DNA from: Actinomycetota bacterium
GTDB lineage: Bacteria > Actinomycetota > Thermoleophilia > RBG-16-64-13
Assembly (NCBI GenBank): GCA_012523095.1
Contig: JAAYJE010000033.1
Span: 10,612 to 74,611 of the forward strand
Direction of reading: 5' to 3'
Length of the DNA stretch: 64,000 nucleotides
Part shown: piece after piece, positions 26,237 through 44,268 of the stretch
Numbering within the stretch: the stretch's first letter is position 1
How the letters are laid out: each line of letters starts with the position of its first letter
The notes under the pieces: model-generated
Seen by the model: the letters and a program-made list of their open reading frames with translations, nothing else
What the model was told of the DNA's origin: nothing
Database searches by the model: none
Program-made: the position numbers and the translations under genes

Positions 26237-26247
26237 GAGAGGCGACG

Positions 26248-26838: not shown

Positions 26839-26861
26839 ACGACTGATGATCAAGGCGGTGC

Positions 26862-26892: not shown

Positions 26893-26936
26893 TCGAAGGA
26901 CGGAGGTCGATCACGAGCGAGCCCGGAGGGTCGTTG

Positions 26937-27920: not shown

Positions 27921-27984
27921 GCTTCGCCGGTTGGAAGGCCTGCTCTCCGTCGGCCTGCGAAGTGTCCTCGGAGCGACTGATGCC

Positions 27985-28884
27985 TCAGATCGCGCGGGAA
28001 AAACCGGCCCATTTGGCGTCGATCTGCTCCTGGATGTCGGCGACCTGCTCCTCAGTCATGACCTTGAAGCGTGACTGCGTCTTCAAGTATTCAATCACCG
28101 GCGTCAACGGCCGCTTCTCGAGGAGTTTCCCCGATGCGCCGGTCAGCCTGAACTCACCATGGTCGACCTCGTAGAGGTCGAAATACCCGGTCTCGATCGC
28201 GAGCCGGCCGATCTTGACGGTGTATCGAGTGTCGAAGCCCCATCCCGGCGGACACGGCGTGTGGATGTGGATGTACTTCGTGCCCTCTATCGATAGGGCC
28301 TTCTTGATCTTGTCATAGAGATCCAGAGGGTAGGCCGACGAGGCGGTGGCCACATAGTCGATGCCGTGGGCGGCCATGATGGCGGGCACGTCTTTCTTCC
28401 TCTGTTGCTTGCCCTTGAAGGGCGTGTTCGTAGTGATGGCGCCCTGAGGCGTAGTGCCCGAACGCTGCACCCCGGTGTTCATGTAGCCCTCGTTGTCGTA
28501 GCATATGAAGAGGAAGTCGTCGCCGCGTTCGGCGGCTCCGGAGAGCGCCTGGATGCCGATGTCGCTGGTACCTCCGTCACCGGCCCAGCCCACCACTTTG
28601 ATGTATGTTCTTCCCTGGGCCTTGAGCGCTTCGAGGACGCCGGTGGCCGCCGCGGCGGTGGAGGCGAAGGTGACGTTCAGGCAGGGCAGCTTAGTGGAGG
28701 CCACAGGGAACAGCCCCTGCAGGACCGTGAGGCAACTCGGCGGCACGACAAGGATGGTGTCCGGCCCCAGGGCCTTGAGCCCGATACGGTACGCGATGCT
28801 TAGACCGCAGCCTGTACAGGCTCGGTTGCCCGGGTGAACCAGTTCTTCCTTAGGCAGCGTGAGTATGGTGGTCTTGGCGGACAT
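27985..28884 (-). CDS. 2-oxoacid:ferredoxin oxidoreductase beta (TPP-binding) subunit
   Basis: CTGCG near the N-terminus and the GWAGDGGTSDIG TPP motif. Last gene of a gamma-delta-alpha-beta operon. Confidence 0.85.
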   Translation of the reverse strand: MSAKTTILTLPKEELVHPGNRACTGCGLSIAYRIGLKALGPDTILVVPPSCLTVLQGLFPVASTKLPCLNVTFASTAAAATGVLEALKAQGRTYIKVVGWAGDGGTSDIGIQALSGAAERGDDFLFICYDNEGYMNTGVQRSGTTPQGAITTNTPFKGKQQRKKDVPAIMAAHGIDYVATASSAYPLDLYDKIKKALSIEGTKYIHIHTPCPPGWGFDTRYTVKIGRLAIETGYFDLYEVDHGEFRLTGASGKLLEKRPLTPVIEYLKTQSRFKVMTEEQVADIQEQIDAKWAGFSRAI

Positions 28885-28893
28885 GTCAGCCTT

Positions 28894-30153
28894 TCAGATC
28901 TTCAGACCGATCCAACCGGGATCGTCAAGGGCGCCGGTGATGGCGGTGCGCAGCGTGTCGGTAAGGTCGGCGGTCCTGATATCTCGCCCGCCTATACCGG
29001 CGATGAGGCCTCTAACGAAGGGCCCGTCGACGCAGGGGCCTCCGCGCTGCGTGACGTCGGTGCGGTCGCCGGGAAGGCCGCCGGCCGCGTCGGCGCCATC
29101 GCCGCGGCATCCGTACAGAGCCGCCTTGATATCGGAAGAGAGCGCCCCCTCGTATCCGTAGGACAGCGCCTTCTCGATGACGAACACCCCACGGGCGCGC
29201 CGCAGGACCTCGACCGCCGCTTCATCGGGGAAGGGCCGGTACATCCGGATGCCCAGTACGCCCACCTTCAGCCCTTCACTCCGCAGCGTCTCCACGACGT
29301 CACGCAGCTGATATGTCAGCGAACCAAGGCCGACCACTATGTAGTCCGCATCGTTGCACCGGTGAGGTTCGAGAAGGGCGTTCCCACCGCGCCCGAAGAT
29401 CTGCGTGAACCTATCCTCGATCTCTTGGGCGATGGTCAAGGTCTGTCTCAGGTCTTCCTGGAGCAGATAACGGAACTCCATGTATCCGTGGGCCATCTCG
29501 CCCTCTACGTCCATGCGCACGTCGGGTAGGGTCACGGTGTTGAGGTTGGCGGGATTCTGAGGGTCGAGGGCGTAGTGAGGCTTGAACGGCCGCAGGAAGC
29601 GCTTGACCTGCTTCTCTTCCGGTACCTCGAAAGGCATGTAGGTGTGTGAGAGCAGGTAGCCGTCGTAGCACACCATGACCGGTATGCTGACGGTCTCGGC
29701 TATCGCGAAGGCCTTGAGCACGCTGTCGATGATCTGCTGGTGGTCGCAGGCATACATCTGGATCCATCCCGTGTCGCGCTGTGAGATGGAGTCCTGATGG
29801 TCGTTCCAGATATTCCAGGGCGCACCCACGGCGCGGTTGACCACACACATCACTATAGGCAGCCGGGCGCCCGCCGCCCAATGGACCTGCTCGTGCATGT
29901 AGAGCAGTCCGTTGGCACTGGTGGCCGTGAAGGCCCTGGCTCCTGTCGAACTTGCGGCGATGCAGGCGGCCAAGGCGGAGTGTTCGCTCTCCACCGGGAT
30001 GTATTCGGCCTTCATCTCCCCGGCTTCGATGAACTCGGAGAGTTTCTCGGTGAGCGGGGTTTGTGGCGTGATGGGGTAGGCGGCGATCACCTGGACTCCG
30101 GCGAGCTTCACTCCCAGTGCAGCCGCCACGTTGCCGTTCTCGATCACGTGCAC
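28894..30153 (-). CDS. 2-oxoacid:ferredoxin oxidoreductase alpha subunit
   Basis: GNVAAALGVKLAGVQVIAAYPITPQT is a typical PorA/VorA N-terminus. About 30 aa of Gly/Asp-rich insertion lies near the C-terminus. Confidence 0.85.
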   Translation of the reverse strand: MHVIENGNVAAALGVKLAGVQVIAAYPITPQTPLTEKLSEFIEAGEMKAEYIPVESEHSALAACIAASSTGARAFTATSANGLLYMHEQVHWAAGARLPIVMCVVNRAVGAPWNIWNDHQDSISQRDTGWIQMYACDHQQIIDSVLKAFAIAETVSIPVMVCYDGYLLSHTYMPFEVPEEKQVKRFLRPFKPHYALDPQNPANLNTVTLPDVRMDVEGEMAHGYMEFRYLLQEDLRQTLTIAQEIEDRFTQIFGRGGNALLEPHRCNDADYIVVGLGSLTYQLRDVVETLRSEGLKVGVLGIRMYRPFPDEAAVEVLRRARGVFVIEKALSYGYEGALSSDIKAALYGCRGDGADAAGGLPGDRTDVTQRGGPCVDGPFVRGLIAGIGGRDIRTADLTDTLRTAITGALDDPGWIGLKI

Positions 30154-30494
30154 GGTCTGGGTCCTTCAAACGAGCAGGTGTCCGGCGTATCGACCTCCTC
30201 GGGCCTCTCCGTCTCGTCGACCATGGTGATGGCTTTGGTCGGGCATTCCTCGGCACAGATGGCGCAGCCCTTGCAGTACTCGTAGTCGATAGTGGGGGGG
30301 ATGGTACGCGATATGACCGCGTCGGGACAGTAGAGCCAGCAGATGAAGCAGGCCTCGCTGCCGCGCTTGACAGGGGTGCATCGCTCCAGGTCGATGATCG
30401 GGCGCTGTACCCGCCAAGACCCTGTCCTGCCTCCGTCACCGGGCCCGGACAGGCTGTGCGAAGTCTTGTAACGATAGTCCCTGGTCCCCATCAC
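30144..30494 (-). CDS. 2-oxoacid:ferredoxin oxidoreductase delta subunit (2x[4Fe-4S] ferredoxin)
   Basis: CFICWLYCP and CKGCAICAEECP motifs in a 116-aa protein. Confidence 0.8.
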   Translation of the reverse strand: MMGTRDYRYKTSHSLSGPGDGGRTGSWRVQRPIIDLERCTPVKRGSEACFICWLYCPDAVISRTIPPTIDYEYCKGCAICAEECPTKAITMVDETERPEEVDTPDTCSFEGPRPCT

Positions 30495-31147
30495 CCACTC
30501 CCAGACACGGCCGAGCCCGGGTCTCTCACCACAGCGACCAGATCAGCACCAAGCCGCCCGGCAATCGCTCCGGCGTCGTCCGCGTCGGCGACGGTCGGGG
30601 AGCCGTTCACAACCGTCCTCTCGTAGGCCAGCCTAGCCGATTGGGCGTTCGCCTGCGGTCTCTTCGTCTTGAACTCGGCTTCAATCTCCCCGAGCACTCG
30701 CTCGAAGGGTACGATGTCAAACGCGCGGCACAAGATCCCGATCACTCCGGAGTTCACCACACCGCGTGGTAACCCCGCCTCCACCGCGAGAGAGGTCGCG
30801 TCGGCCACGGCCAGCCGCTCGACGCCGAAGTCATAGGAATCCAGCGGCTTGGGGGTGTTCAAGACCATGAGCCCCCTCTCCTTGAGCCCCCCGGTGACGT
30901 CGGCCTCGGTCAACAGCAGGTGGTCGAGTACCACCACGATGTCGGGGGTCTCGATGGGGGAGATGTCGTAGATCTTCTCCTTGGCGAGCTTCAGCGAGGT
31001 GAAGACCGGAGCGCCGCGTCGTTCGGTGCCGAAAGTCGGGGCCATAACCACTCCGGTGTACCCGGACTTGAATGCCGCCGTGGCGAATATCTTGGCCGCC
31101 GTTATGGCGCCTTGTCCGCCTCTGCCGTGCCATCGTATCTGGATCAT
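30491..31147 (-). CDS. 2-oxoacid:ferredoxin oxidoreductase gamma subunit
   Basis: ATG at 31147 gives MIQIRWHGRGGQGAITAAKIFA..., the canonical gamma-subunit start. Confidence 0.85.
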   Translation of the reverse strand: MIQIRWHGRGGQGAITAAKIFATAAFKSGYTGVVMAPTFGTERRGAPVFTSLKLAKEKIYDISPIETPDIVVVLDHLLLTEADVTGGLKERGLMVLNTPKPLDSYDFGVERLAVADATSLAVEAGLPRGVVNSGVIGILCRAFDIVPFERVLGEIEAEFKTKRPQANAQSARLAYERTVVNGSPTVADADDAGAIAGRLGADLVAVVRDPGSAVSGSG

Positions 31148-31160
31148 CCGTTCTCTCTCT

Positions 31161-31220
31161 AGCCGTCGTAGACGCCCGTATCGCAAACGTCACCGTCGCA
31201 GATGCCCGTGTCGCGAATGC
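31161..31220. repeat. imperfect 30-bp tandem direct repeat in the divergent promoter region
   Basis: agCCGTCGtAGAcGCCCGTaTCGCaAAcGt and caCCGTCGcAGAtGCCCGTgTCGCgAAtGc share 22/30 positions. They lie between the oxidoreductase operon and the crotonase gene. Confidence 0.6.
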
Positions 31221-31315
31221 GCTTGCGGGGTATTCTAGCCTGCCTGGGAGAATTTCGACGCCGTTTGCGCGCTTCGATGGCGATCAGTGCGGCATAGGGA
31301 GGTCGGTGAGCCGGT

Positions 31316-32086
31316 ATGTATGTCGATCTACGCAAGGAAGACGGAGTCGCGGTGCTGACCATCGACAGGCCCGAGGCGCTCAATGCCATGAACGTGGACA
31401 TGCTGGCCGAGTTGCGCGAGACCATCGAGCAGGTGGAGGGTGATGACGACATCTTGGTGCTTGTCGTCACCGGTACGGGCAAAGCTTTCATCGCCGGCGC
31501 GGACATCGCCCACATGAAGGACTTCTCCTCTCGGCAGGCCAAGGAGTGGTCGGAGTACGGCCAGGACACGGTGGGCATGCTCGAGAAGATGAAGAAACCG
31601 GTCATCGCGGCGGTGAACGGTTACGCCTTGGGCGGGGGCACGGAGCTGGCCATGGCTTGCGATATCCGGGTGGCGTCGGATAAGGCGGTGTTCGGGCAAC
31701 CGGAGGTCAAGTTGGGCATGATCGCCGGTTTTGGCGGGACGCAGAGGCTGCCGCGGTTGGTGGGGCCCGGCAAGGCCAAGGAGATGCTCTTCACCGGTGA
31801 TCACTACGATGCTCAGGCGGCTTACGAGATGGGTCTGGTCAACAAAGTCGTGTCTGCAGACGAGCTCATGGACTACTGTCTCGACATGGCCAAGCGGATC
31901 GCCTCCTGCGGGAAGCTGGCCGTGAGACTCAGCAAAGAAGCCGTAGACCACGGTCAGGAGATGGACCTGGAGAAGGCACTTCATCTCGAATCGAGTCTGT
32001 ATGCGGTAGTCTTCTCTACCGACGAACCCTGCGAGGGTTGTGGTGCCTTTCTAGAGAAACGGGAGCCGAAGTGGACTTCAAGCTGA
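31316..32086 (+). CDS. enoyl-CoA hydratase (crotonase family)
   Basis: VLTIDRPEALNAMN, FIAGADI and AAVNGYALGGGTELAMACDIRVAS motifs. Confidence 0.9.
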   Translation: MYVDLRKEDGVAVLTIDRPEALNAMNVDMLAELRETIEQVEGDDDILVLVVTGTGKAFIAGADIAHMKDFSSRQAKEWSEYGQDTVGMLEKMKKPVIAAVNGYALGGGTELAMACDIRVASDKAVFGQPEVKLGMIAGFGGTQRLPRLVGPGKAKEMLFTGDHYDAQAAYEMGLVNKVVSADELMDYCLDMAKRIASCGKLAVRLSKEAVDHGQEMDLEKALHLESSLYAVVFSTDEPCEGCGAFLEKREPKWTSS

Positions 32087-33210
32087 CAGAGGATCAACAA
32101 CTCATCCGCGATACCGCCAAGGATTTCGCGCAACGCGAGATAGCGCCCCAGGCAGAGGAGATCGATAGGTCGGGGACCTTCCCCCTCCACATCCTCAGAC
32201 AGATGGCCGGCCTCGGCCTCATGGGCCTGCCGATCGCTGAGGAGTATGGGGGAGCCGGGGGAGACTACACCAGCTACTGTCTGGCCCTGGAAGAGATCAC
32301 CCGGGCCTGTGGGTCCACGGGTCTGACCTACGAGGCGCACATCTCTCTCGGGTGCATGCCGATCTACTACTATGGGACTGAGGAGCAGAAACGGGAGTAT
32401 CTCCCCATGCTGTGCAGCGGCGAGAGCATGGGCTCCTTCGGCCTCACCGAGCCGGAGGCCGGGTCTGACGCCGGGGGCACCAAGACGACCGCCGTCCTTG
32501 AAGACGGGGAGTGGGTCATCAATGGTTCCAAGTGCTTCATCACCAACGCCGGCTACGCCAAGTTCGTGACCATAACGGCGGTGACCGACAGGGATAAGGG
32601 CACCCGGGGCATCAGCGATATCGTCGTGCCCACCGACACGCCCGGGTTCACAGTGCGATCGGGATATGAGAAGCTGGGCCTTCACGGCTCCAACACCACC
32701 GAGCTGTTCTTCGACGACGTGAGGGTGCCGGAGAAGAACCTGATCGGGGTGCGCGGAGAGGGTTACAAACAGTTCTTGGTGGTGTTGGACGGCGGCCGCA
32801 TAGCTATCGGTGCGATGGGGGTCGGCATCGCTCAGGCGTGCTTGGACGCCGCCCTCAAGTACGCCAAGGAACGTTGCCAATTCGGCCGTCCCATCGGGAA
32901 GTTCCAGGCCATCCAGTTCAAGCTGGCCGACATGGCCATGAACATCGAGCTGGCCAGGAACATGTACCTGAAGGCCGCATGGCTCAAGGATACCGGGCAG
33001 CCCTACTCGCTGGAGGCCAACTACGCCAAGCTCTTCGGCTCGGAGATGGCGACCAAGGCCGCGTTGGAGGCCATCCAGATTCATGGGGGGTATGGTTACA
33101 TCAACGAGTTCCCGGTGGGGCGTTACCTACGTGACTCCAAGCTGCTGGAGATCGGTGAGGGCACCTCGGAGGTGATACGGCTGGTGATCGCCCGGAGACT
33201 CGGTCTCTAG
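32071..33210 (+). CDS. acyl-CoA dehydrogenase (short/branched-chain type)
   Basis: GTG at 32071 gives VDFKLTEDQQLIRDTAKDFAQREIAP. GLTEPEAGSDAGG and the C-terminal QIHGGYGYINEFPVGRYLRDSKLLEIGEGTSEV are also present. Confidence 0.9.
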   Translation: MDFKLTEDQQLIRDTAKDFAQREIAPQAEEIDRSGTFPLHILRQMAGLGLMGLPIAEEYGGAGGDYTSYCLALEEITRACGSTGLTYEAHISLGCMPIYYYGTEEQKREYLPMLCSGESMGSFGLTEPEAGSDAGGTKTTAVLEDGEWVINGSKCFITNAGYAKFVTITAVTDRDKGTRGISDIVVPTDTPGFTVRSGYEKLGLHGSNTTELFFDDVRVPEKNLIGVRGEGYKQFLVVLDGGRIAIGAMGVGIAQACLDAALKYAKERCQFGRPIGKFQAIQFKLADMAMNIELARNMYLKAAWLKDTGQPYSLEANYAKLFGSEMATKAALEAIQIHGGYGYINEFPVGRYLRDSKLLEIGEGTSEVIRLVIARRLGL

Positions 33211-33265: not shown

Positions 33266-34699
33266 TCACCCGGCGCCCAGCTTCTCGTCCAGCAGCTCGC
33301 GTATGACCTTGGGATCGGCCTTGCCGCCCGATGCCTGCATCACGCGACCGACCAAGAAACCGAGGGCCTTCACCTGCCCACTCTGGAAGTCGGCCACAGC
33401 CCTCGCCTGCTCGGTAAGGACCTTGTCGATGAGCGGGTCTAGAGCGTCGGCATCGGAGATCTGCTTGAATCCGCGCCGGGCCACGATCGCCTCCGGAGCC
33501 TCATCACATCCGAACATCTCCACGAGTACCTCGCGCGCCGCGTTGGCATTGATCTCGTCCTTTGCAAGCAGGTCAAGAAGCGCGGCCAGGCGCTCCGGGG
33601 CGACCGGCGAGGTGTTCAGATCCTGCCGTCGCTCCCTGACGGCCGGGATCAACTGAGTGGTCAACCAGTGCATGGCGGTCCGCGGTGCAATGCCGCGCGC
33701 GACCAGCGCATCGAAGTAGGCCGCCACCTCGGGGTCGGCGCTCAGAGACAGTGCCTCTTCTCGCGTGAGCCCGTGCTGTGCGGTCAAACGCTCCCCGCGT
33801 TCAGTCGGCATCTCTGGAAGACGGGTCCGCATCTGCTCGATCCATGCGGGGGACAGTTCGATTGCGGGTACGCACGGATCGGGCACACAGGGTCCTTCAA
33901 ATTTGGCCCGCATGGGGAGGGTGGCCTTCTTGTCGGGGTCCCATAGGCGGGTGTGCAGTATCACAGCTTCGTCCGCCTGAACGGCCGCCGTTTGGCGGGC
34001 GATCTCATAGGAGATGGCGTCTCCCACGTGACGCACAGAGTTCATGTTCTTGACTTCGACCTTGGTGTTCATCTGGTCGGTACCGCGAGGACGTATTGAG
34101 ATGTTGGCGTCGGCGCGCATGGTGCCGTCGTCCATGTTGCAGTCGGAGGAGCCCACGTAGCGGACTCGGGTTCGGAGCGTCTTGAGGAACTCCATGGCCT
34201 GATAAGGTGTGCGGAAGTCGGGCTCTGTGACGATCTCTACCAGCGGAGCTCCTGCACGGTTGAAGTCCACCAGACCGACCGGCAGACGTCCCTCCATCTC
34301 ATGCACGAGTTTGGCCACGTCTTCCTCCATGTGGATATGGTGGATACGGAGCTTTCGAGTCACGCCGTCCTCGTCCAGGATGTCGATACCTCCGCCACGG
34401 GAGAGCGGGAGGTGGATCTGTGACAACTGAAAGCCCTTGGGTAGATCGGGGTAGTAGTAGATCTTCTGGTCGAAGGCGCTCCTGGGTTGGAGTTCTGCGC
34501 CCAGCCCCAGAGAAAGAAGTGAGGCTTTCTCAAGGGCTTCCTGGCTCAGGCGGGGAAGCGCCCCGGGCAGCCAGAGACACGTAGGGCAGGTGTTGGCGTT
34601 GGGTTGGTCGCCGGGATGGTTCGGGCAATCACAGAACATCTTGGTGACGCAGTTGAGCTCGACATGGATCTCGAGTCCGATTACCGCTTCGAATTCCAT
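33266..34699 (-). CDS. gatB: Asp-tRNA(Asn)/Glu-tRNA(Gln) amidotransferase subunit B
   Basis: MEFEAVIGLEIHVEL..., YYYPDLPKGFQLSQ, HHIHMEEDVAKLVH, and a C-terminal YqeY-like tail. 477 aa. Confidence 0.9.
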   Translation of the reverse strand: MEFEAVIGLEIHVELNCVTKMFCDCPNHPGDQPNANTCPTCLWLPGALPRLSQEALEKASLLSLGLGAELQPRSAFDQKIYYYPDLPKGFQLSQIHLPLSRGGGIDILDEDGVTRKLRIHHIHMEEDVAKLVHEMEGRLPVGLVDFNRAGAPLVEIVTEPDFRTPYQAMEFLKTLRTRVRYVGSSDCNMDDGTMRADANISIRPRGTDQMNTKVEVKNMNSVRHVGDAISYEIARQTAAVQADEAVILHTRLWDPDKKATLPMRAKFEGPCVPDPCVPAIELSPAWIEQMRTRLPEMPTERGERLTAQHGLTREEALSLSADPEVAAYFDALVARGIAPRTAMHWLTTQLIPAVRERRQDLNTSPVAPERLAALLDLLAKDEINANAAREVLVEMFGCDEAPEAIVARRGFKQISDADALDPLIDKVLTEQARAVADFQSGQVKALGFLVGRVMQASGGKADPKVIRELLDEKLGAG

Positions 34700-34701: not shown

Positions 34702-35943
34702 CTACTCACCTCCCCAAGATTCTGAGATGAATCGGCCCAAGTCCAGCAGACGCCCATCGCTGAGTCTCGGCCCCGTCAGCTGGAAACCTGTTGGTGCGGA
34801 GCCGGGAACCGGCGGCAGGTACAACGCCGGTTGTCCGGTCACATTCGCGTAGAGGGTGGAGGCGTGACTCTCGTAAAGGCCGGCGAGCGACGGCGGAACG
34901 CCCGCGCCGCTGCGGACCTCCTGCGCCGGACCGTCGTCCATCGGCAGCACGAAGAAGTCGACCTCCGACTCGAGCCGCCGCATATCCTCGACCAGACGGG
35001 CGCGGATGCGGCAGGCGTCGATGAACGCCTCGTAGCGTTCGAACTGGAAGAAGGCCCCCTGGATGAGATAGCTCTTGATGAGCGTGCCGAACGCAGCGCC
35101 ACGCGACATGAGGTACATCTCGTTCCAGTTCTTGGCGCCCGGCGCACGGGGTCCGTAGCGCACCGAATCGTAGCGTCCGGCGGCAGAGGAGGCTTCCACG
35201 GAGCCGACGACCCTATGGACGAGCGAGAAAAGCTCGTAGCCGGGCAGAGACACTTCCCGCAGGGTGAAGCCCAAGCGCCTCAGCTCCTCCATGCTCGCGC
35301 GGAAGCCCTCTGCTCCTCTGGGCGTCGGTGCGCCCCGCGAGTCCCCTGTCGCAGGCGACCTTTCTGCGCCTGCGGCCATGCTCTGCGCTTCGGTGATGAT
35401 CCCGATGGTGATCTCTTCCGGTCGGATCTCCCGCGGGGAGAAGTCGGGAGCGTCCTCCTCGGGAAGCGAGAAATCCAGGCCGTCCTGGCCCGCGACGGTC
35501 ATCAGCACCTCCCCGATAGTATTCAGGCTCCCGGACAGGATGCCGCAACACTCCATGGAGGGGATGAGTCCGATCAGGCCGAAGCGTGACACCAGCCCGT
35601 AGCTGGGTTTGAGGCCATAAATGGATGCGTGGGCCGCGGCCAAACGGCTTTCGCCCATGAAGTCCATGAGCAGTTCGGCACCGTCCACAGCCTCCGCTCC
35701 GCCGGCACTCGGCCGGGGGGCCACCGCGGCCGCTCCGCCCACCGGCAGCCCGAAGCCGAACTCGCCCACACAAGCTGAGCTGCGCAGATGGGCTCCGGCC
35801 TCGCGCAACCGTCTTACGACGGTGGCATCCTCCACCGCCGTATAGCCGGTAAGAGCATTTGAACCTGCCTCCGCCGGCCGACCCCGCATCGAGATGTTGG
35901 ACGGCACCGCGACGGTCATATCCTGCTGAAGAGCGGGCTTCAT
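34702..35943 (-). CDS. gatA: GatA-derived subunit with substituted amidase-signature catalytic residues (predicted glutaminase-dead)
   Basis: Clear GatA similarity in the middle and C-terminal parts (YGLKPSYGLVSRFGLI, EASSAAGRYDSVRYG, YLMSRGAAFG). It is only 413 aa. IKDNI reads VPSNI, GGSSGGS is absent (AAVAPRPSAGG), and DTGGSIR reads DFMGESR. A good SD is present and the gene is tightly coupled to its neighbours. Confidence 0.75.
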   Translation of the reverse strand: MKPALQQDMTVAVPSNISMRGRPAEAGSNALTGYTAVEDATVVRRLREAGAHLRSSACVGEFGFGLPVGGAAAVAPRPSAGGAEAVDGAELLMDFMGESRLAAAHASIYGLKPSYGLVSRFGLIGLIPSMECCGILSGSLNTIGEVLMTVAGQDGLDFSLPEEDAPDFSPREIRPEEITIGIITEAQSMAAGAERSPATGDSRGAPTPRGAEGFRASMEELRRLGFTLREVSLPGYELFSLVHRVVGSVEASSAAGRYDSVRYGPRAPGAKNWNEMYLMSRGAAFGTLIKSYLIQGAFFQFERYEAFIDACRIRARLVEDMRRLESEVDFFVLPMDDGPAQEVRSGAGVPPSLAGLYESHASTLYANVTGQPALYLPPVPGSAPTGFQLTGPRLSDGRLLDLGRFISESWGGE

Positions 35944-35954
35944 GAGGTGTCTCC

Positions 35955-38075
35955 CTATTCCAGGATGCCGGCGACTTTGAAGTAGTCGCCTTTGAGAGAG
36001 GGGGCGTTCTTGAGCAGATCACCCGTTTCGGCGGACTCCGAGCGCTTCCCCACCGTTCCCGGCCGCGTGCGGTTGACGACGGGAACAACCGAGTACATCG
36101 GCTCCAGCTCTCCCGCTTCCTTGGCGGCCAGCAGGGCCAGCTCCTCGGCTTGGTCGAGGACGATCTCCATCGCCGGATGCTCCTCCGGGGCGACTCCGAT
36201 GCGAGACAGCCATGAGATGCGGTCCACCCGGTCCTCTCTCTCAGCGGCGTCGGGCGGCACTTCCCGGCCGCCCAGGTCGAGCAGCCCCAGTTCGGCCAAT
36301 TGTTCGCGTTTGACCGAGGCGGGCGCGCCGGTGAGAGGGCAGGCGGCACTACGATTCTTTGGGAAGGCGATAACCTCCCGTATGGAGGGTGTCTGAAGGA
36401 TCATCGACACGGTGCGGTCCATGCCCAGCGCCAGGCCGCCGTGAGGAGGGGGGCCGAAGTCGAAGGCCCGCAGGAAGAACCCGAACCTCTCTCTGACGTC
36501 GTCGTCCGTCAGCCCCAGCGCGGCGAAGATCTTTTGCTGTACCTCGCGGTCGCTGATGCGGATGCTGCCGCCGCCCAGTTCTTCGCCGTTCATGACCAGA
36601 TCGTAGGCCCGGGAGCGCAGTGTCAGCAGCTCCTCCACGTTGTTCGGGTCGAAATCGGTGCGGTCCGGCGCCGTGAACGGGTGGTGGCTGGAAGTGACGC
36701 TCCCCTCGTCGGTTGCGTCGAACAAGGGGAAGTCTGTGACCCAGACCGGGCAGAAGCTGTCCGCGGGAATCAGCCCGAGCCTATCCGCCAGGTGCAGGCG
36801 AAGCCGGCCTAGTGCCGAGGTCACCACATCGTACGCGGGATCGGCGATCATGATGAGGACGTCGCCATCCGCGACCTCGAAGCGCTCGCGCAACCCCTGC
36901 AGCTCTCTCTCGTTGAAGAACTGGACGATGTTGGATTCCAGCGCTCCGTTCTCAGCCCGCATCCAAGTCATGCCCTTGGCGCCGAATGAAGGTGCTATCT
37001 CTTTGGCATACTCGTTTTGAAGCACATTCTTACTGAGTCTATCGGACTGACCTTTGAGGTTAAGCCCCTTGATGCATCCACCCCGTAGAATTATCCGACG
37101 GAAGATCGAGTAGTCGGTTTCGTCGAACAGATCGGTCACATCGACGAAGCGCAGACCAAAACGTAGATCGGGGCGATCGGAGCCGGTGGAATCCACTGCC
37201 TCCGCGTAGGTGATGCGCGGGAAAGGCCGGGTCAGCGAGATGCCGCCCACGGCGAACATCTCGACGACCAACTCTTCGACCAACTCATAGAGGTACTCCT
37301 CGTCGATGAAGGAGGCCTCGATGTCAAGCTGTGTGAACTCCGGTTGCCGGTTGGGGCGTAGGTCTTCGTCGCGAAAACAGCGGGCCAGCTGATAGTAGCG
37401 CTCCATGCCCCCGATCATGAGGAGCTGCTTGAAGAGCTGGGGTGACTGGGGGAGGGCGTAGAAGCTCTGCTGGTGAAGCCGGCTGGGCACTAGGTAGTCT
37501 CGCGCTCCCTCGGGGGTGCTGGCGGTCAGCATAGGAGTCTCGACCTCAACATAACCCTTAGAATCGAGCACCCGGCGCACAGTCTGGAAGATTCGGTGCC
37601 TCAGTACCAGGTTGTCGTGCATGGAGGGGCGGCGGATGTCCAGGTACCGGTACTGGAGGCGCAGATCCTCCGTCACGTGGCCGGTCTCGGTGGAGGCGGC
37701 CCCGGCGACCATGCCTTTCTCTGAGACCGTGAAGGGAAGGGCCTCCGACTCTGAGAGTACTTCAAGTTCGGTGGCCATGACCTCGACCGTCCCGGTCCTT
37801 ATGCCCGGATTCTCGGTTCCCGGGCGGCGGCGTCTCACCTCACCCCTCACCGCAATGCAGTACTCCGAGCGCAGCGCGGCGGCCCGCTCGCAGATATGCC
37901 GCGGCGTCTCCTCCGGGCTGAAGACCAGCTGGATGATGCCGCTCCCGTCGCGAAGATGTACGAACATCAGGCCGCCGTGGTCTCGGAAGGCGTCTACCCA
38001 GCCGGCGACCACCACTTCGCGGCCGGTGTCGGCGGGAGCCAGTTCCCCGCAGAAAGCACGTTCGGAGAGATGCAT
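35955..38075 (-). CDS. aspS: aspartyl-tRNA synthetase fused at its C-terminus to a GatC module
   Basis: ATG at 38075 gives MHLSERAFCGEL...VVVAGWVDAFRDHGGLMFVHLRDGSG, a bacterial AspRS. It runs through the class II motifs to ...VIAFPKN.... After a ~16-aa linker with no stop comes a GatC-like 89 aa (DRISWLSRIGVAPEE...GELEPMYSV...NRTRPG...LLKNAPSLKGDYFKVAGILE*). Confidence 0.85.
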   Translation of the reverse strand: MHLSERAFCGELAPADTGREVVVAGWVDAFRDHGGLMFVHLRDGSGIIQLVFSPEETPRHICERAAALRSEYCIAVRGEVRRRRPGTENPGIRTGTVEVMATELEVLSESEALPFTVSEKGMVAGAASTETGHVTEDLRLQYRYLDIRRPSMHDNLVLRHRIFQTVRRVLDSKGYVEVETPMLTASTPEGARDYLVPSRLHQQSFYALPQSPQLFKQLLMIGGMERYYQLARCFRDEDLRPNRQPEFTQLDIEASFIDEEYLYELVEELVVEMFAVGGISLTRPFPRITYAEAVDSTGSDRPDLRFGLRFVDVTDLFDETDYSIFRRIILRGGCIKGLNLKGQSDRLSKNVLQNEYAKEIAPSFGAKGMTWMRAENGALESNIVQFFNERELQGLRERFEVADGDVLIMIADPAYDVVTSALGRLRLHLADRLGLIPADSFCPVWVTDFPLFDATDEGSVTSSHHPFTAPDRTDFDPNNVEELLTLRSRAYDLVMNGEELGGGSIRISDREVQQKIFAALGLTDDDVRERFGFFLRAFDFGPPPHGGLALGMDRTVSMILQTPSIREVIAFPKNRSAACPLTGAPASVKREQLAELGLLDLGGREVPPDAAEREDRVDRISWLSRIGVAPEEHPAMEIVLDQAEELALLAAKEAGELEPMYSVVPVVNRTRPGTVGKRSESAETGDLLKNAPSLKGDYFKVAGILE

Positions 38076-38232: not shown

Positions 38233-39345
38233 TCAACAGGTGGCCAAAGGCAGGGCGCCCTGCCCACGCTTGCCGTTCGACAGCACGGAGACGTGCTGCT
38301 CCACCACATGCGCGATACGGTTGGGCGAGAGTATGTAGCGAGCGCTTTTGAGTTTGATGGCCTCCCCAGGCATGCCGTAGACCACAGATGTCTCCTCATC
38401 CTGGGCGATGGTCACGGCGCCCTTGTCGCGCATGAGCCGGAGTTCCTTGGCTCCATCTCTGCCCATGCCCGTCAGGAGGATACCGATGGCATTCGCGCCG
38501 TAGTGCTGGGCTACCGATCGGAAGAGTGCCGAGACCGACGGGCGAGAGCCGTTTTCCGGCGGGTCGTCGTTCAACACCAGCCGGCCCTGACGGTTCACAG
38601 TCATGTGCCGGTTGTCGGGCGCGAGGTATACCAAGCCTGGACGGAGGGGCATGCCGTGTTCGCCGACGCAGATCCGGGTGCCGGTCGATTCGGACAGCCA
38701 CGCCACCATGCTTGCCTGAAAGCCGGGACTCAGGTGTTGGACGAGCAGGATGGGTACCGGAACAGGCCGCGTCAGCCCGCGCAGGATGGTCTGTAGCACC
38801 GGCGGCCCTCCTGTTGACGCTCCTATGGCCACCACCTCGATGCGGGTGGCCGGCCGGGCCGGCGAAGGGGGCGGAATCGCTTCCGGGGGGAGCGAACGCG
38901 ACTGAGAACGGCGGTTCCTCCGTCTCACGACCTTGACCTCGGACATCGCGCGTACGGTGCTTATCAGTCTGTCGCCGCTGGCGCGTGCATCCGAGCCGGT
39001 GGGGGTCCAAGTGACGAAAGCCACTGCTCCGACGTTCAACGCCTGGCTCTCGAGGGTGGCCACAGGCGCGTCGGCCTGTTTCGACATCATAACGATGGGG
39101 ACCGGATGCCCGCTCATGATCTCCCATACCGCTGCGTAGCTGCCTGGGTTGGGCAGGTCACAATCGACCAGAATGACGGACGGCGTGACTTCCTCAACGA
39201 GGCACAGTGCTTTGTCCGCGGTCGCTGCTTCGCCCACCACATCGATATCGGCGATGGGGTCGAATAGCCCGCAGAGCCGCTCCCGGGCGGTCGGCGAGTT
39301 GTCGACGATCAGCAGTCTGATCGTTCGAGCCGTATTTTGTGTCAC
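38233..39345 (-). CDS. cheB: chemotaxis-type response regulator protein-glutamate methylesterase (REC-CheB, WspF-like)
   Basis: REC domain (RLLIVDNS..., ILVDCDLP) plus the methylesterase domain (VVAIGASTGGPPVL, LLVQHLSPGF, ILLTGMGRDG). The GTG start overlaps the cheA stop. Confidence 0.9.
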   Translation of the reverse strand: MTQNTARTIRLLIVDNSPTARERLCGLFDPIADIDVVGEAATADKALCLVEEVTPSVILVDCDLPNPGSYAAVWEIMSGHPVPIVMMSKQADAPVATLESQALNVGAVAFVTWTPTGSDARASGDRLISTVRAMSEVKVVRRRNRRSQSRSLPPEAIPPPSPARPATRIEVVAIGASTGGPPVLQTILRGLTRPVPVPILLVQHLSPGFQASMVAWLSESTGTRICVGEHGMPLRPGLVYLAPDNRHMTVNRQGRLVLNDDPPENGSRPSVSALFRSVAQHYGANAIGILLTGMGRDGAKELRLMRDKGAVTIAQDEETSVVYGMPGEAIKLKSARYILSPNRIAHVVEQHVSVLSNGKRGQGALPLATC

Positions 39346-41675
39346 AGGAGACTCCGAGCGGTCTCCAGAAGTGTCCCCTGCGTGAACGAACTCTTCGTGA
39401 GATAGGCGTTCGCCCCTACGTCAATGCCACGTTCCTTGTGCTCCTGGGACTCCATGCCTGTGACAAGCATAACGGGCAGCCGTGACAGGCGCGCGTCGCC
39501 GCGGATCTTGTTGGTCAGCTCGAAGCCGTCCATGCGTGGCATCTCGATGTCGCTGATGACCAGATCGAAATCCTCCTCGTTGAGGGCGGTGAGAGCGTCA
39601 ACCCCGTCCACAGTGGGTCTGACGTAGAAGCCCGCCGCTTCCAGCACGTTCTTGAGCAGCATCCGGGAAGTGATGGAGTCCTCGACGACCAGCACGGCTT
39701 TCCTGGGGACGCCGCCGTTGGCGGAGGCTCCATCGCGGCCTCTCGATGAGATGCCACCTCGGGCCGACTGCAGAAGATCGCTGATGTTGATGATAGGGAC
39801 TACCTTGCCGGATCCCATGATCGTCCCGCCGGCGATGTTCCGTACCCTTATGAGTTGCGGCCCAAGCGTCTTCACCAGCACTTCCTGTTCGTCGATGATG
39901 CTGTCCACCGCGAACGCGACACGCTCGTCTCCGCTGCCGGCCACTACGGCTTGGATATACTCAGAGACACCCCTCTGAGACTTGAGAGGTAGGTCCAGCA
40001 CCTCATGCAGGTACACCAGCGGCAGCGTCTGGCCCTCCAGTTGGATGGTTTCGCGGTTCTCCACCAGGCGCAGGTTGCTTCTGTGGATCCGAACCACCCG
40101 GTCCACTCCCACGACAGGCATGACAAACGGCCAATCGGAGACCTGGGCCACTACGCCCCGGGCCGTGGCCAGGGTCGCCGGTATAGTGATGCGGAATGTG
40201 GTTCCTTTGCCCAACTCGGTCTCGATGGCCACAGAGCCGCCGAGGTTCTCGACCTTCTCCTCCACTATGGCCAGTCCGAGCCCTCTGCCGGAGACCTGTG
40301 ACACCACTTGGGTTGTGGAGAGACCGGAGGCGAAGACCAGGCGAAGAGCTTCACCGTCGTCAGTGTCGTCCACCTGTATCTGGGTGCGATGGCCCTCGCG
40401 CACCGCGGTGTCGCGCAATCGTTGTACGTCGATGCCACCGCCGTCGTCGGAGACGCATATCTCGATCTTGTTGTTTTCGAGTTGAGAGACGGCGACAGAG
40501 ATCAGACCGCGTGGCGATTTGCCCAGGCCCATCCTGATCTCCGGCGTCTCGATCCCGTGGTCGACGCTGTTGCGAAGCAGGTGGATGAGCGGATCCTTGA
40601 GATTCTCAATCACGCGCTTGTCGATCTCGACGTCGGCGCCCACGATGGAGAACTCCACCAGCTTGTCCTTGGAGCGGGCCAGGTCGCGGATCATCTTGGG
40701 GAAGGTGGAGAGAAGAGAGGACATGGGCAGCATCAGGACGCGCTTCATCCCGTCCAACAGGTCGTCGACCATCGGGTCTATCGTGCGCCGTTCGTCATCC
40801 GCGGCTTTGGATAGCGCACGGATGTCGGCGATCACACCTTCCATGAAGGTGGAGTTCCACTCAAGGAAGTCCTCGACCTTGTCGCGGTCGTCGCTGATGT
40901 GAGTCTGATACCACTCCCTCTTCCACATGTCCAAACGGGAACTCAGGTCACGCAGAGCGGTTGCCTGCTGGCCGGCGGATAATTTGACGGAGATGAATTC
41001 CTCCGCCTGCAGCATGAGCGACTCCAGCTTGTTCGTGGCCACGCGGATCGTATCGGTGGCCGTTGCCAGGGGGGCCGTGGGGGTGGTCTGCTGTTCGGCC
41101 GAGGTGCCTTGAGCCGCGGGAGGCGCCGTCGGCGTGGGTTGACGCTCAGGCTGAACTCGGTGCGGCTCGACCGGGAGAGCAGACTCATCCGTAAACGGTT
41201 CCTCAGGGCGCCATCCGCTCCAGGGAGCATCGGGGGCGGCGATCGGCGGGGTTTGCTGTCTGTCCGGTCTCGCGTTGGTCGGTTTGCCGACGGCCGCCAA
41301 TCTCTCGAGCGCGGCGTCGACCCGTCCTTCCATAGACGCCTCGCCCGCGACCAGACAACCTTGGAGGCAGTCGACGCATTCGCTGAGCGCGTCGACCACC
41401 GGATAGGTGACCTGGAGTTCTGCATGCTTGAGCGCGGAGAACACGGACTCTACGTTCTGGCAGATGGAGACCATCAACGCGTATTCGACGGCGGCAGCCG
41501 CCCCCTTGAGACTGTGCGCCTCCCTCAAGAGGATCTCGAGGGGGGCGTGGGCGGCGTAGCCTTCCCCAGCGGCCTCGAGCTCCACCAGCGCCGTGGACAG
41601 TGCACCGATGTGCTCTTCCGCGTCCTGGCGGAACGTCTCCATCAAGTCTCTAAGGAATTCTTCGTCTTCAGTCAT
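39342..41675 (-). CDS. cheA: hybrid CheA-type histidine kinase with C-terminal receiver (WspE-like)
   Basis: HPt (REAHSLKGAA), HATPase (LIHLLRNSVDHGIE, DDGGGID, GRGLGLAIV), a CheW-like domain, and a C-terminal REC (VLVVEDS..., DLVISDIEMPRMDG). Confidence 0.9.
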   Translation of the reverse strand: MTEDEEFLRDLMETFRQDAEEHIGALSTALVELEAAGEGYAAHAPLEILLREAHSLKGAAAAVEYALMVSICQNVESVFSALKHAELQVTYPVVDALSECVDCLQGCLVAGEASMEGRVDAALERLAAVGKPTNARPDRQQTPPIAAPDAPWSGWRPEEPFTDESALPVEPHRVQPERQPTPTAPPAAQGTSAEQQTTPTAPLATATDTIRVATNKLESLMLQAEEFISVKLSAGQQATALRDLSSRLDMWKREWYQTHISDDRDKVEDFLEWNSTFMEGVIADIRALSKAADDERRTIDPMVDDLLDGMKRVLMLPMSSLLSTFPKMIRDLARSKDKLVEFSIVGADVEIDKRVIENLKDPLIHLLRNSVDHGIETPEIRMGLGKSPRGLISVAVSQLENNKIEICVSDDGGGIDVQRLRDTAVREGHRTQIQVDDTDDGEALRLVFASGLSTTQVVSQVSGRGLGLAIVEEKVENLGGSVAIETELGKGTTFRITIPATLATARGVVAQVSDWPFVMPVVGVDRVVRIHRSNLRLVENRETIQLEGQTLPLVYLHEVLDLPLKSQRGVSEYIQAVVAGSGDERVAFAVDSIIDEQEVLVKTLGPQLIRVRNIAGGTIMGSGKVVPIINISDLLQSARGGISSRGRDGASANGGVPRKAVLVVEDSITSRMLLKNVLEAAGFYVRPTVDGVDALTALNEEDFDLVISDIEMPRMDGFELTNKIRGDARLSRLPVMLVTGMESQEHKERGIDVGANAYLTKSSFTQGTLLETARSLL

Positions 41676-41708
41676 CTCGGACCTCTCTTACACGCGATTC
41701 AGGCGCTC

Positions 41709-42311
41709 CTATAGTCCGCTCCGCACCAATAGATCTTCGGAAGCAAGCAGTTTCTCGGCATCCAAGACCACGACCCTGTCCTGGGTGACTCCCTTCAGGT
41801 ATTCCTCGCGCTTCCCGGACAATGTGGCGAGTGCGCGCTGGCCTTGGTCGCCGTCGATCGCGTACACCCCCGCGATCTCATCGGCCAGGACCGCTAATTC
41901 CATCTCTCCATTGTGCAGGATGATCGCTTTGTTGAGATTAGTGAGGCCGACATTCACGAAGTCCATCAAACGGCGTATATCCATGACGGACAGGATGCGG
42001 CCCCGCACGTTCACTACTCCGAGGATGTAGGGCGGCACGTTCGGCAGCGGCGTGATCTCTATGAGGGGGAACACCTCGCGGACGAACGACGTCTCAAAGG
42101 CGTACCGCTCCGGACCGAGGGAGAACTCTAGGATTTCCATGAGCCGTGCCCCGCCCACCTCGGCATCCGGGGTCTTGGCCAGTTCCCTCGCCCGGCGCCT
42201 CAGTATCTCGCGAATCGGATCCGTCTCGGTGACGCCCGCGCGCGGCTCAGGGCTCTCCTGGAGTGGTCCTACTTCAGGTTCTGACATGGACGCTTCATTC
42301 ACGATACACAC
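41709..42311 (-). CDS. cheW: CheW-like coupling protein (WspD-like position)
   Basis: The CheW domain includes ILGVVNVRGRILSVMDIRRL. Alternative ATG at 42287, just after the cheR stop. Confidence 0.8.
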   Translation of the reverse strand: MCIVNEASMSEPEVGPLQESPEPRAGVTETDPIREILRRRARELAKTPDAEVGGARLMEILEFSLGPERYAFETSFVREVFPLIEITPLPNVPPYILGVVNVRGRILSVMDIRRLMDFVNVGLTNLNKAIILHNGEMELAVLADEIAGVYAIDGDQGQRALATLSGKREEYLKGVTQDRVVVLDAEKLLASEDLLVRSGL

Positions 42312-43705
42312 TCACTTCCCATCAGGGACGCCACCGTCTCGGCCATCTCGCCGGCGGTGAGTCCGTCCGCCTCAGGCAATACGGTGCTCGACGGCATCTG
42401 CGCAAGCAGGACGAGCGCCTCGCGGAAATGCTTGGCGGCTTCACCTGATCTGGATTGGCTACGGGCGATGGCGCCCAGCATTATCCGCGCTAGTGCAAAG
42501 CCGCCGTCGAGGAACAGCGTTGACTGCAGGGCCTGCTCCGCCTCGTCGGGGCGGTCCAGTTCCTGCAATATGCTGGCCTTCAGGTAATAGAGGGATGGGT
42601 TGAGCTTGTCGCACTCAAGGGAGGATTCGCAACAAGCCAGTGCTCGATTCAACTCCCCTCTGTCGGCCAGAATCCGCGCCTCTCGTGCGGCTTCCACCGG
42701 GTCCGTCGTCGCCTTGGCCGGCCTCTTCGCGGTCTCGGCTGCCGGCCTCTCGGCGTGGGCGGAGAACGGCCTGTTCTTGCTACGCCGCTCCACACGAGGG
42801 GCTTCCGGTGGCGCTGCTGCGGGCCGGTCCGCGAGCGGAACGTGGAGGTCGTCGTGTACAGCTCCACTGAACCTGGGAGTCTTCTTGTAGACGATCTCGC
42901 CGTTGCTCATGGAAGAAGTGAGGCCGCCCTGGATCTCTCGCGAAGCCTCGCTGGGTGTGACCAGAAGGTAGCCGCCTTCCCTCAAGGACCTGTGTAGTCG
43001 TTCAGCGACTTTTGCAGCCATCTCTCTGGAGAAGTACATCAGCACGTTCCGGCACAGGATCAGATCGAAGTCATGGATGTCCGACCCCGGCGAAGGGTAG
43101 ACGTTGTCGGCAAGGTTGAGAAAGCGGAAGGTCACCATGTCGCGTATCGCGGGGTCGAGCAGGTAGCGGCCCTCCGGGGTCCGGGTGAAGTACCCGTTTA
43201 TCACCCACGAAGGCGTGCCGCGGAAGGACCACTGTGTGTACTCTGCCTTGTTCGCTGCAGCGACGGCTTCGGGATTGACGTCGGTGGCAAGGATGGTCAC
43301 GTCCCAATCGGCGCGGTCGGAGATGAGACGCGAGATCAGGATCGCTAGGGAGTAGGGTTCTTGTCCGGTGGCGCACCCGGCACTCCAGAGCCTGAGCCTC
43401 CTCGTGGTGTGTTGCCGGGCGGCGATCAATTCAGGAAGCAACGAAGACTGCAACATGGCAAAAGTGTCCGGGCTGCGGAAGAAATGGGTCTCACCTACCG
43501 TAAGGTGAGCCGCCAGTGCCTGCACTTCGCGCCGGCCGAAGGAATCGGACAGGAGTCGGGCGACGAGAGAGTGAGGGCTCTCCAAGCCCAGGCTTTGTGC
43601 GGCCCCCTCGAGCCCCCTGACGAGGTCCGGCCAGCGGTCCTCAGGGAAGTTGAGCCCCATGCGCTCCGCGATACGACTTGCCGGCACCGACAGGTCGTAG
43701 TTCAT
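42299..43705 (-). CDS. cheR: CheR-type methyltransferase with a C-terminal TPR region (WspC-like)
   Basis: LRLWSAGCATGQEPYSLAIL, DLILCRNVLMYF, then a Pro/Ala linker and TPR-like helices. Confidence 0.9.
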   Translation of the reverse strand: MNYDLSVPASRIAERMGLNFPEDRWPDLVRGLEGAAQSLGLESPHSLVARLLSDSFGRREVQALAAHLTVGETHFFRSPDTFAMLQSSLLPELIAARQHTTRRLRLWSAGCATGQEPYSLAILISRLISDRADWDVTILATDVNPEAVAAANKAEYTQWSFRGTPSWVINGYFTRTPEGRYLLDPAIRDMVTFRFLNLADNVYPSPGSDIHDFDLILCRNVLMYFSREMAAKVAERLHRSLREGGYLLVTPSEASREIQGGLTSSMSNGEIVYKKTPRFSGAVHDDLHVPLADRPAAAPPEAPRVERRSKNRPFSAHAERPAAETAKRPAKATTDPVEAAREARILADRGELNRALACCESSLECDKLNPSLYYLKASILQELDRPDEAEQALQSTLFLDGGFALARIMLGAIARSQSRSGEAAKHFREALVLLAQMPSSTVLPEADGLTAGEMAETVASLMGSECVS

Positions 43706-44268
43706 GTCATTTCCAATTCGGCCAGAACTGAGGCAAAGTCACGGTCGGAGAAGGATCCGTCTCTGAAGACCACCCTCTCAAGATCGAGGGCGTAGATGAG
43801 CTCGCCGTCTACGGGGACGATCTTCTGGAGGCAGCGCGTCCGCTCGTCGTCGTCGTGAGGAACGAATCCGCCTGACACCTCCAGAGAGCCCAGCGCTGCG
43901 TCCGCGGGGAGGACCACCGAGGTGGTCGAGGTGTTTGCGATGATGAAGTGGTCATCCAGACCTATGTCGCGGGTAGGTTGCCCAAAACGCGCACGGAGAT
44001 CCACGACGGGTAGGACTCGGCCCTGGATGTTGACGACGCCCCGGATGTGAGACGGGGATTCCGGTACGGGCTTGACCTCGACGGCCCGGACTATCCTCTC
44101 GACCTCCCAGATATGAAGAGCGTAGGTCTGCTCGTCGAGTTGGAATGTCACCCAGGTCTCCGTCGTGCCGTCAGCAGCGGCGGCGTCCGCCGCCACGGCC
44201 GGCTCCGCATAGCCTGAAAGACCGTCTGACTGCATGGTCGTCTCACTCTCTCTTCCTAGAAGGAACAT
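43702..44268 (-). CDS. cheW: CheW-like coupling protein (WspB-like position)
   Basis: WVTFQLDEQTYALHIWEVERIV...IRGVVNIQGRVLPVVDLRARFG. The stop overlaps the cheR start (ATGA). Alternative start at ATG 44235. Confidence 0.8.
   Translation of the reverse strand: MFLLGRESETTMQSDGLSGYAEPAVAADAAAADGTTETWVTFQLDEQTYALHIWEVERIVRAVEVKPVPESPSHIRGVVNIQGRVLPVVDLRARFGQPTRDIGLDDHFIIANTSTTSVVLPADAALGSLEVSGGFVPHDDDERTRCLQKIVPVDGELIYALDLERVVFRDGSFSDRDFASVLAELEMT

Follow-up and report, generated by a model that had tools for sequence, protein, structure and literature searches.

A 64,000-nucleotide stretch of contig JAAYJE010000033.1 from an actinomycetotal bacterium (hereafter the window) contains the three-gene cassette aspS::gatC-gatA′-gatB. 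The middle gene, gatA′ (34702-35943, minus strand, as are all cassette features given below), encodes a 413-amino-acid homologue of GatA. GatCAB is the standard example of a tRNA amidotransferase that depends on glutamine, and glutaminase activity is the defining property of its A subunit. Open reading frame analysis, profile hidden Markov models, alignment and fold searches indicated that GatA′ has neither the Ser-cisSer-Lys triad nor the glutamine-binding residues of that enzyme. As judged from sequence, the cassette is a new variant of GatCAB, widespread in anaerobes, in which a glutaminase-dead but selected GatA is combined with GatB and with an AspRS fused to GatC. The reading that we favour, with moderate confidence, is that GatA′ is a glutaminase-dead yet working subunit of a tRNA-dependent amidotransferase that uses ammonia and is encoded in a self-contained three-gene cassette.

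The gatA′ product and its active site

The gatA′ product matched the Pfam Amidase family (PF01425) with 129 bits, and the top matches of a PDB sequence search (phmmer) were all GatA chains. An AlphaFold2 model of the protein was of good overall quality (predicted template-modelling score 0.84, mean predicted local distance difference test [pLDDT] 77), and the best Foldseek matches of this model were the GatA chains 3H0L_A, 3KFU_E and 4WJ3_A (template-modelling scores 0.76-0.78). The derivation from GatA that was proposed in the first-pass annotation is thus well founded. The TIGR00132 gatA model, however, gave only 178.1 bits (model positions 60-462), and its curated equivalog cut-off of 481.1 was not reached. 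The same annotation had put the N-terminal loss at about 65 residues. The truncation itself was borne out, but its size was nearer 52-58 residues, with query residue 8-10 corresponding to canonical GatA residue 60-68, and no earlier in-frame start is possible. In the Gaiellales-like clade to which the window belongs, the N-terminus of GatA′ is about 20 residues shorter than in the remaining family. A low-complexity insertion, AGAERSPATGDSRGAPTPRGAEG, in residues 191-213 (window 35310-35381) was likewise seen only in this clade.

Residue replacements were mapped by HMMER alignment to the GatA proteins of Aquifex, Thermus and Pseudomonas, and by MAFFT alignment with GatA fragments from three bacteria; canonical residues are numbered as in S. 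aureus GatA. The catalytic Lys79 (AVKDNI) was replaced by Pro14 (AVPSNI; codon CCG at 35902-35904), a position at which most of the family has Gln. The nucleophile Ser178 (DTGGSIR) was replaced by Glu98 (DFMGESR; codon GAA at 35650-35652). About 20 residues that include the GGSSGGS loop and cis-Ser154 were deleted relative to Aquifex, Thermus and Pseudomonas GatA in the MAFFT alignment, and a variable linker of residues 67-88 (35680-35745), with pLDDT below 50, stood in place of the roughly 30-residue GGSSGGS/cis-Ser segment. The three replacements read from an ungapped alignment in the first-pass annotation, namely IKDNI by VPSNI, the GGSSGGS loop by AAVAPRPSAGG, and DTGGSIR by DFMGESR with Glu at the Ser position, were therefore all recovered.

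The glutamine ligands were also changed. The glutamine-binding residues of GatA, Tyr309, Arg358 and Asp425, are named in bioRxiv 10.1101/733030, and their yeast equivalents in PMC4027206. In the window protein, Tyr309 is His243 (codon CAT, 35215-35217), the glutamine-carboxylate ligand Arg358 is Tyr292 (codon TAT, 35068-35070), and the glutamine-amino ligand Asp425 is His360 (codon CAC, 34864-34866). Outside the pocket, GatA′ retained the GatA motifs KP[ST]YG.VSR.G, EASS..GRYDSVRYG and ANVTG.P in the MAFFT alignment, in which 'SMEC' of GatA′ was the homologue of canonical 'SLDQ'.

A misalignment that masks an existing triad was ruled out, since the HMMER alignments to three PDB GatA proteins, the MAFFT alignment and fold matching were concordant; in none of them was a Ser/Ser/Lys alternative found in register. 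Alignment and an AlphaFold model, checks of a kind that the first-pass annotation had proposed, upheld the loss of the triad. No metal-binding or alternative nucleophile motif stood out in GatA′. With all catalytic and glutamine-binding residues lost, GatA′ is predicted to be glutaminase-dead.

Conservation of the replacement residues

More than 1,000 database proteins resemble GatA′, and the best 120 were mostly 377-457 amino acids long and 54-98% identical to it. In a profile search of 1.84 billion representatives, the cassette family scored from 613 to about 216 bits, against 212 bits or less for canonical GatA.

The substituted positions were uniform across 158 distinct family sequences. 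Glu occupied the Ser178 position in all 157 aligned sequences and His the Tyr309 position in 156 of 158, while the Arg358 position was aromatic in nearly all (Tyr in 145, Phe in 10). At the Lys79 position Gln was found in 147 sequences and Pro in 6, and at the Asp425 position Phe was found in 149 of the 158, with His in the window sequence only. Canonical GatA representatives, by comparison, had K-T-S-Y-R-D at the pocket positions in 69 of about 80 cases. The linker that replaces the cis-Ser loop varied in both length and sequence within the family. Since the replacement residues are themselves conserved, the pocket has not been left to drift; alignment of the family indicates that it is rebuilt into a new conserved set of Glu, His and aromatic residues and not merely decayed. 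Over the whole protein, 153 of 368 columns were at least 90% conserved across at least six phyla.

Selection and reading-frame integrity

Ratios of nonsynonymous to synonymous substitution (dN/dS) were calculated by the Nei-Gojobori method on unsaturated orthologue pairs (dS 0.08-0.66). The values for gatA′ were 0.13-0.26; in the same pairs, gatB gave 0.05-0.14 and aspS 0.04-0.17. The gatA′ gene is under purifying selection that is about twofold relaxed relative to its partners, and is not decaying. Indeed, the frame was intact in 79 of 80 genomic copies. The loss of catalytic residues combined with purifying selection and conservation in orthologues is that of a pseudoenzyme. The view of the first-pass annotation that gatA′ encodes a maintained, non-glutaminase subunit and is not a pseudogene was substantiated by the intact frames, the dN/dS values, the substitutions shared by 158 sequences and the strict gene order described below. 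The frameshifts or stops that would have marked simple pseudogenisation of the orthologues were not borne out in these 79 loci.

The exceptional copy (L073:15-884) has an in-frame stop exactly at the codon of the invariant Glu131 ('PSM*CCG'), about 100 nucleotides from the contig end, which could be a sequencing error or a real inactivation.

Partner genes and translational coupling

Upstream of gatA′ lies aspS::gatC (35955-38075, ATG at 38075), which was identified by Pfam, NCBIfam and gene callers and encodes a 706-amino-acid fusion of a bacterial-type AspRS with a C-terminal GatC-like domain. Its Pfam domains are, in order, tRNA_anti-codon (OB), tRNA-synt_2 (class II core), GAD and GatC, and the class II motifs of the AspRS are intact. 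NF009460, 'bifunctional aspartyl-tRNA synthetase/amidotransferase subunit C', matched with 1261.7 bits (cut-off 1379) over model positions 17-723 of 723, and NF001750 aspS with 741 bits; full-length AspRS and GatC in one polypeptide is the architecture that NF009460 describes. The GatC-like domain comprises about the last 107 residues (35955-36278). Positions 4-93 of 93 of the TIGR00135 gatC model aligned with fusion residues 616-707 (E = 4.6e-4), and Pfam GatC gave 21.4 bits. Among the genomic loci, the fused GatC domain was found wherever the contig allowed, at 49-81% identity.

The fusion AspRS shares a 'DHGG' His with the enzymes of P. aeruginosa and M. tuberculosis that the PDB lists as Asp/Asn ligases, while Leu occupies this position in the Thermus-type chains 6hhv_A (named tRNA(Asp) ligase) and 1efw_A. 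This His is a lead only with respect to the charging of tRNAAsn, because the housekeeping AspRS of Smithella, described below, has the same residue.

Downstream lies gatB (33266-34699; 477 amino acids), assigned with NCBIfam and Pfam as the canonical kinase/transamidase subunit, with an ATG 2 nucleotides past the gatA′ stop codon. The product matched NF004012 with 544 bits (cut-off 338), TIGR00133 with 463 bits, Pfam GatB_N and GatB_Yqey, and Aquifex GatB with 401 bits, and retained GLEIHV, YYYPDLPKG, EED..K, NRAG.PL.EIVTEPD and EVKN.NS. By these motifs and scores, GatB is predicted to be an active kinase/transamidase.

Both junctions of gatA′ are tight. The GGAG Shine-Dalgarno sequence of gatA′ (35951-35954) stands right behind the TAG of aspS::gatC and 7 nucleotides before the ATG, giving TAG-GGAG-7 nt-ATG. 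At the other end, the arrangement is TAG-2 nt-ATG, and the GGAGG Shine-Dalgarno sequence of gatB (34709-34713) lies within the last gatA′ codons; both signals were read directly from the sequence. A position between gatC and gatB with translational coupling is that expected of a GatA-type gene. The AspRS-GatC fusion, the intact-looking gatB, the GGAG sequence and the tight coupling of gatA′ to gatB were all as first annotated.

The conserved C-terminal 'GG' of the GatA′ family coincides with the gatB GGAGG (window 34705-34713), and its conservation may in part reflect selection on the DNA signal for gatB translation.

Distribution of the cassette

The cassette was sought in a genome scan with one genome per GTDB species, which yielded 80 loci of about 13 kb each; carrier phyla (at least six) and habitats were taken from record titles. 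The order aspS::gatC-gatA′-gatB was kept in all 80 loci as far as the contigs reach. Carriers included Syntrophus buswellii DM-2, which is cultured and has a complete genome, the benzene-degrading enrichment organism ORM2a, Smithella, Desulfatiglans and Dehalococcoidia, as well as Gaiellales/Thermoleophilia (nearest to the window, 67% identity), Verrucomicrobiota, Acidobacteriota and Planctomycetota. Their sources were digesters, methanogenic enrichments and anoxic sediments, and the window sequence occurs in anaerobic digester metagenome assemblies. Across phyla, cassette AspRS and GatB were 73-89% and 71-89% identical, respectively, to the window proteins. Two divergent clusters of the Glu/His family, defined at 50% identity (P0124 and P0128), were again encoded between a 706-amino-acid AspRS and GatB. 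The cassette is widespread across phyla and is not a peculiarity of the window genome.

The guanine-plus-cytosine (GC) content of the cassette tracked that of the host flanks (r = 0.93, range 47-72%), and the flanks were unrelated between lineages. Assembly chimerism or contamination is, on both counts, an unlikely source of the cross-phylum spread. Because cassette GC follows host GC and the flanks are unrelated, the cassette has been long resident in diverse genomes, and its distribution is most simply accounted for by horizontal spread among co-habiting anaerobes.

In the flanks of the 80 loci, no additional gene, for example one for a separate glutaminase, proved to be conserved alongside the three. 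A dedicated tRNA and riboswitch or T-box control were considered and dropped: no conserved tRNA was found near the cassette in 56 loci and no tRNA in the window, and Rfam gave no match upstream of the cassette. A tblastn search with Aquifex and Thermus GatA revealed no second gatA in the window or the loci, a search that covered about 1 Mb of flanks and not whole genomes. The annotation of the rest of the window contained no other aminoacyl-tRNA synthetase, gat, asn or gln gene.

In Smithella the cassette has informative neighbours (L042:9544-12642, L057:11678-13093 and L060:5617-7308). It stands beside a housekeeping hisS-aspS pair, whose AspRS is 45-46% identical and has 'DHGG' (two loci), and beside glnS, the GlnRS gene (TIGR00440, 772 bits), which adjoins the cassette in three loci. 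Since hisS-aspS and glnS adjoin the cassette, these Smithella genomes have two AspRS genes and form Gln-tRNA directly, and the cassette is not needed there for Gln-tRNAGln because a GlnRS gene is present.

Triad loss in other GatA lineages

The profile search also yielded at least 25 more GatA-like representatives that do not belong to the cassette family and are without the Lys and/or the Ser, among them P0155, P0158, P0161, P0172, P0194, P0209, P0210, P0216, P0219 and P0259 (loci L088-L097). The Ser was replaced by Glu, Gln, Cys, Ala, Gly or Asp. P0158, P0209 and P0216 lie in ordinary gatC-gatA-gatB operons, and P0161 and P0172 immediately precede gatB. P0216 scores above the GatA equivalog cut-off and has a housekeeping neighbourhood (yicC-remA-gmk-rpoZ-coaBC). 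In a rough neighbour-joining tree, several of these proteins grouped next to canonical sequences, which suggests that the triad was lost independently. Because ordinary gatCAB operons contain such genes, loss of the glutaminase from GatA looks recurrent, and independent losses of this kind suggest a general and overlooked evolutionary route. Glu at the nucleophile position was itself seen again in P0158, P0161, P0209, P0219, P0201 and P0208.

A proposed ammonia-dependent transamidosome and its alternatives

In the model that we favour, the AspRS part of AspRS::GatC would charge tRNAAsn with Asp, and the fused GatC tail would clamp GatA′ and GatB to the synthetase; the AspRS-GatC fusion thereby implies a permanently tethered and assembled Asn-transamidosome. 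GatB would phosphorylate and then amidate Asp-tRNAAsn. Since GatA′ is predicted to be unable to hydrolyse glutamine, the nitrogen source would be free NH3/NH4+, which would enter via the former glutamine pocket, opened by the shortened N-terminus and the deleted loop. The Glu98 carboxylate, the His243 imidazole and the aromatic residues would form a vestibule for ammonium capture and deprotonation where the GatA-GatB tunnel begins. GatA folding and GatA-GatB assembly are reported to require GatC (PMC2330236), and for this reason a GatA-shaped subunit would still be required to attach GatB to the fusion. Yeast GatFAB transamidates with 20 mM NH4Cl when its glutaminase is bypassed, and uncovering the GatA site raised this ammonia-driven activity (PMC4027206). 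A scaffold or ammonia channel supplied with free ammonia, as put forward in the first-pass annotation, would be in keeping with these published results.

Use of ammonia is consistent with the anoxic, methanogenic, ammonium-rich and energy-poor habitats of the carriers. Direct use of ammonia would spare the ATP that glutamine synthetase spends per amide. This saving would pay off for syntrophs and other energy-limited anaerobes in ammonium-rich methanogenic communities.

Several points weigh against this model. That the three proteins form a complex, that ammonia is the donor, that Glu98 and His243 act as described and that tRNAAsn is the substrate are all things that we infer. The clustering of Glu98, His243, Tyr292 and His360 in space is predicted from homology with the solved glutamine sites of GatA. 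The pocket is conserved only modestly above the family background: of its six alignable positions, five reach 90% conservation or more, as do 42% of all family columns. Finally, if a canonical gatCAB or asnS is present in the hosts as well, the cassette would be accessory and its physiological role less clear.

The main rival is that GatA′ is purely a scaffold for GatB and the GatC tail, with ammonia reaching the GatB site from solvent and the pocket residues serving only in packing. The requirement for GatC in GatA folding and GatA-GatB assembly (PMC2330236) would explain why a GatA-shaped adaptor is needed to tether GatB, and the former cis-Ser loop is indeed variable and modelled with low confidence, while the evolutionary rate of gatA′ is about double that of its partners. 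A mere scaffold fits less well, however, with an invariant Glu at the nucleophile position and a near-invariant His at the Tyr309 position, and with the recurrence of the Ser-to-Glu replacement in the six other triad-less lineages named above. At least two nucleotide changes are required by the genetic code to turn Ser into Glu; recurrence despite this points to selection for a carboxylate rather than neutral filling of the position. On balance we consider the scaffold account unlikely.

It is improbable, in our estimation, that GatA′ has remained an amide hydrolase in which new Glu/His chemistry acts on a different donor, for instance asparagine, some other small amide or a carbamoyl compound, and continues to feed the tunnel. 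The high conservation of the replaced pocket residues, with Glu98 and His243 as a potential acid/base pair, would suit such an enzyme, but the machinery of amidase-signature catalysis is built by the cis-Ser loop, all of which is deleted and variable in GatA′. No metal-binding or alternative nucleophile motif is evident either, and 'SMEC' simply matches canonical 'SLDQ'. Moreover, we know of no amidase-signature enzyme that works without its Ser nucleophile.

Quite improbable, too, is the supply of ammonia by a separate glutaminase or ammonia-generating protein that is encoded elsewhere and docks on the complex. Split glutaminase and synthase subunits are common among amidotransferases, and the opened pocket could be a docking site. 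On the other side, no gene of this kind is conserved beside the cassette at 80 loci from many phyla, and a cassette that moves as three genes should be self-sufficient.

We see only a slim chance that the rebuilt pocket of Glu, His and aromatic residues has gained new chemistry, with another nucleophile or donor for the GatB-activated Asp-tRNA, and that the cassette represents a new route of tRNA-dependent amino-acid modification in anaerobes; its product would then be something other than the standard glutamine-derived Asn-tRNAAsn. That gatA′ is a pseudogene in decay, with a frame that survives by chance or through polarity or translational coupling to gatB, might be argued from the loss of every catalytic residue, the score far under the GatA family cut-off and the in-frame stop near a contig end in one of 80 loci, but is refuted by dN/dS values of 0.13-0.26, by length and frame intact in 79 of 80 loci, by 153 of 368 columns conserved over at least six phyla and by a modelled fold that is a well-folded GatA-like domain, and we hold it to be scarcely credible.

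Relation to known systems

GatA′ shares the amidase-signature fold, the operon place upstream of gatB and the GatA motifs with canonical GatA (2DF4, 3H0L, 3KFU and 4WJ3). It differs in being only 24-33% identical, with an N-terminus shorter by about 40-58 residues in this comparison, a deleted cis-Ser loop, replaced Lys, Ser and glutamine ligands, and a score that fails the TIGR00132 cut-off. NF009460 (PRK12820) has the same architecture as aspS::gatC and matches it end to end, although the score is slightly under cut-off. The NF009460 model names only the fusion, and no record was found in which the GatA partner of such a fusion is noted as triad-less.

Amidation by an amidotransferase with free ammonia once the glutaminase is bypassed has a precedent in yeast mitochondrial GatFAB supplied with NH4Cl (PMC4027206). 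GatFAB, however, keeps an active glutaminase and its use of ammonia is a bypass in vitro, whereas in the cassette the glutaminase appears to have been lost by evolution. Tse8, a type VI secretion system effector of P. aeruginosa (bioRxiv 10.1101/733030), is also GatA-like and without glutaminase activity; it is without Tyr309, Arg358 and Asp425 and binds GatB and GatC in place of GatA. Unlike GatA′, which is a resident and co-evolving subunit, Tse8 retains the triad, acts as a toxin by poisoning the complex and is encoded outside gat operons. AtzE-AtzG (PDB 6C62, among the fold matches) pairs a GatA-like amidase with a GatC-like small subunit and now serves a purpose other than tRNA amidation. 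AtzE has amidase activity and operates without GatB, whereas the GatA′ cassette retains GatB and has, by its residues, probably lost amidase activity.

Ammonia-dependent counterparts of glutamine-dependent enzymes are known, as in AsnA compared with AsnB and in NH3-dependent NadE. The proposed logic is the same, to drop the glutaminase and use ammonia, but in these enzymes the glutaminase domain is wholly absent, while in GatA′ the dead domain would have been kept.

Full-text literature searches found no published description of the AspRS::GatC cassette, of a dead GatA or of an ammonia-dependent GatCAB. Public records label GatA′ proteins 'amidase family protein' or 'GatA', and pathway predictions for these genes assume glutamine dependence. 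If the proposed model is true, the cassette would encode the first natural ammonia-dependent transamidosome and would show translation-linked nitrogen metabolism adapting to ammonium-rich, energy-starved anaerobic life. The cultured carrier S. buswellii DM-2 makes the question of ammonia use directly testable.

Other features of the window and loci

In the metagenome-assembled genome of one carrier, the cassette is immediately preceded by Wadjet-like genes for an SbcC-type ATPase and a protein with a JetD_C domain (L099:1-2376). In the window, a complete chemotaxis cluster (CheW, CheR, CheW, CheA-CheW-REC and CheB; 38233-45900, minus strand) is situated about 157 nucleotides upstream of aspS::gatC.

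Genes of anaerobic acyl-CoA metabolism were found at 19835-22505, 26000-33210 and 50130-56107. They encode two HGD-D (2-hydroxyacyl-CoA dehydratase-like) subunits, a thiolase, a four-subunit 2-oxoacid:ferredoxin oxidoreductase, an enoyl-CoA hydratase, two acyl-CoA dehydrogenases, and electron transfer flavoprotein (ETF) alpha and beta with an ETF:quinone oxidoreductase-like protein, a complement that would suit a syntrophic or fermentative way of life. At 47561-50089 and 57178-59877 lie genes for two molybdopterin oxidoreductases and their Fe-S partners, and a trio of URO-D, DUF1638 and pterin-binding (CdhD-like) genes at about 61900-64000 resembles a corrinoid methyltransferase system.

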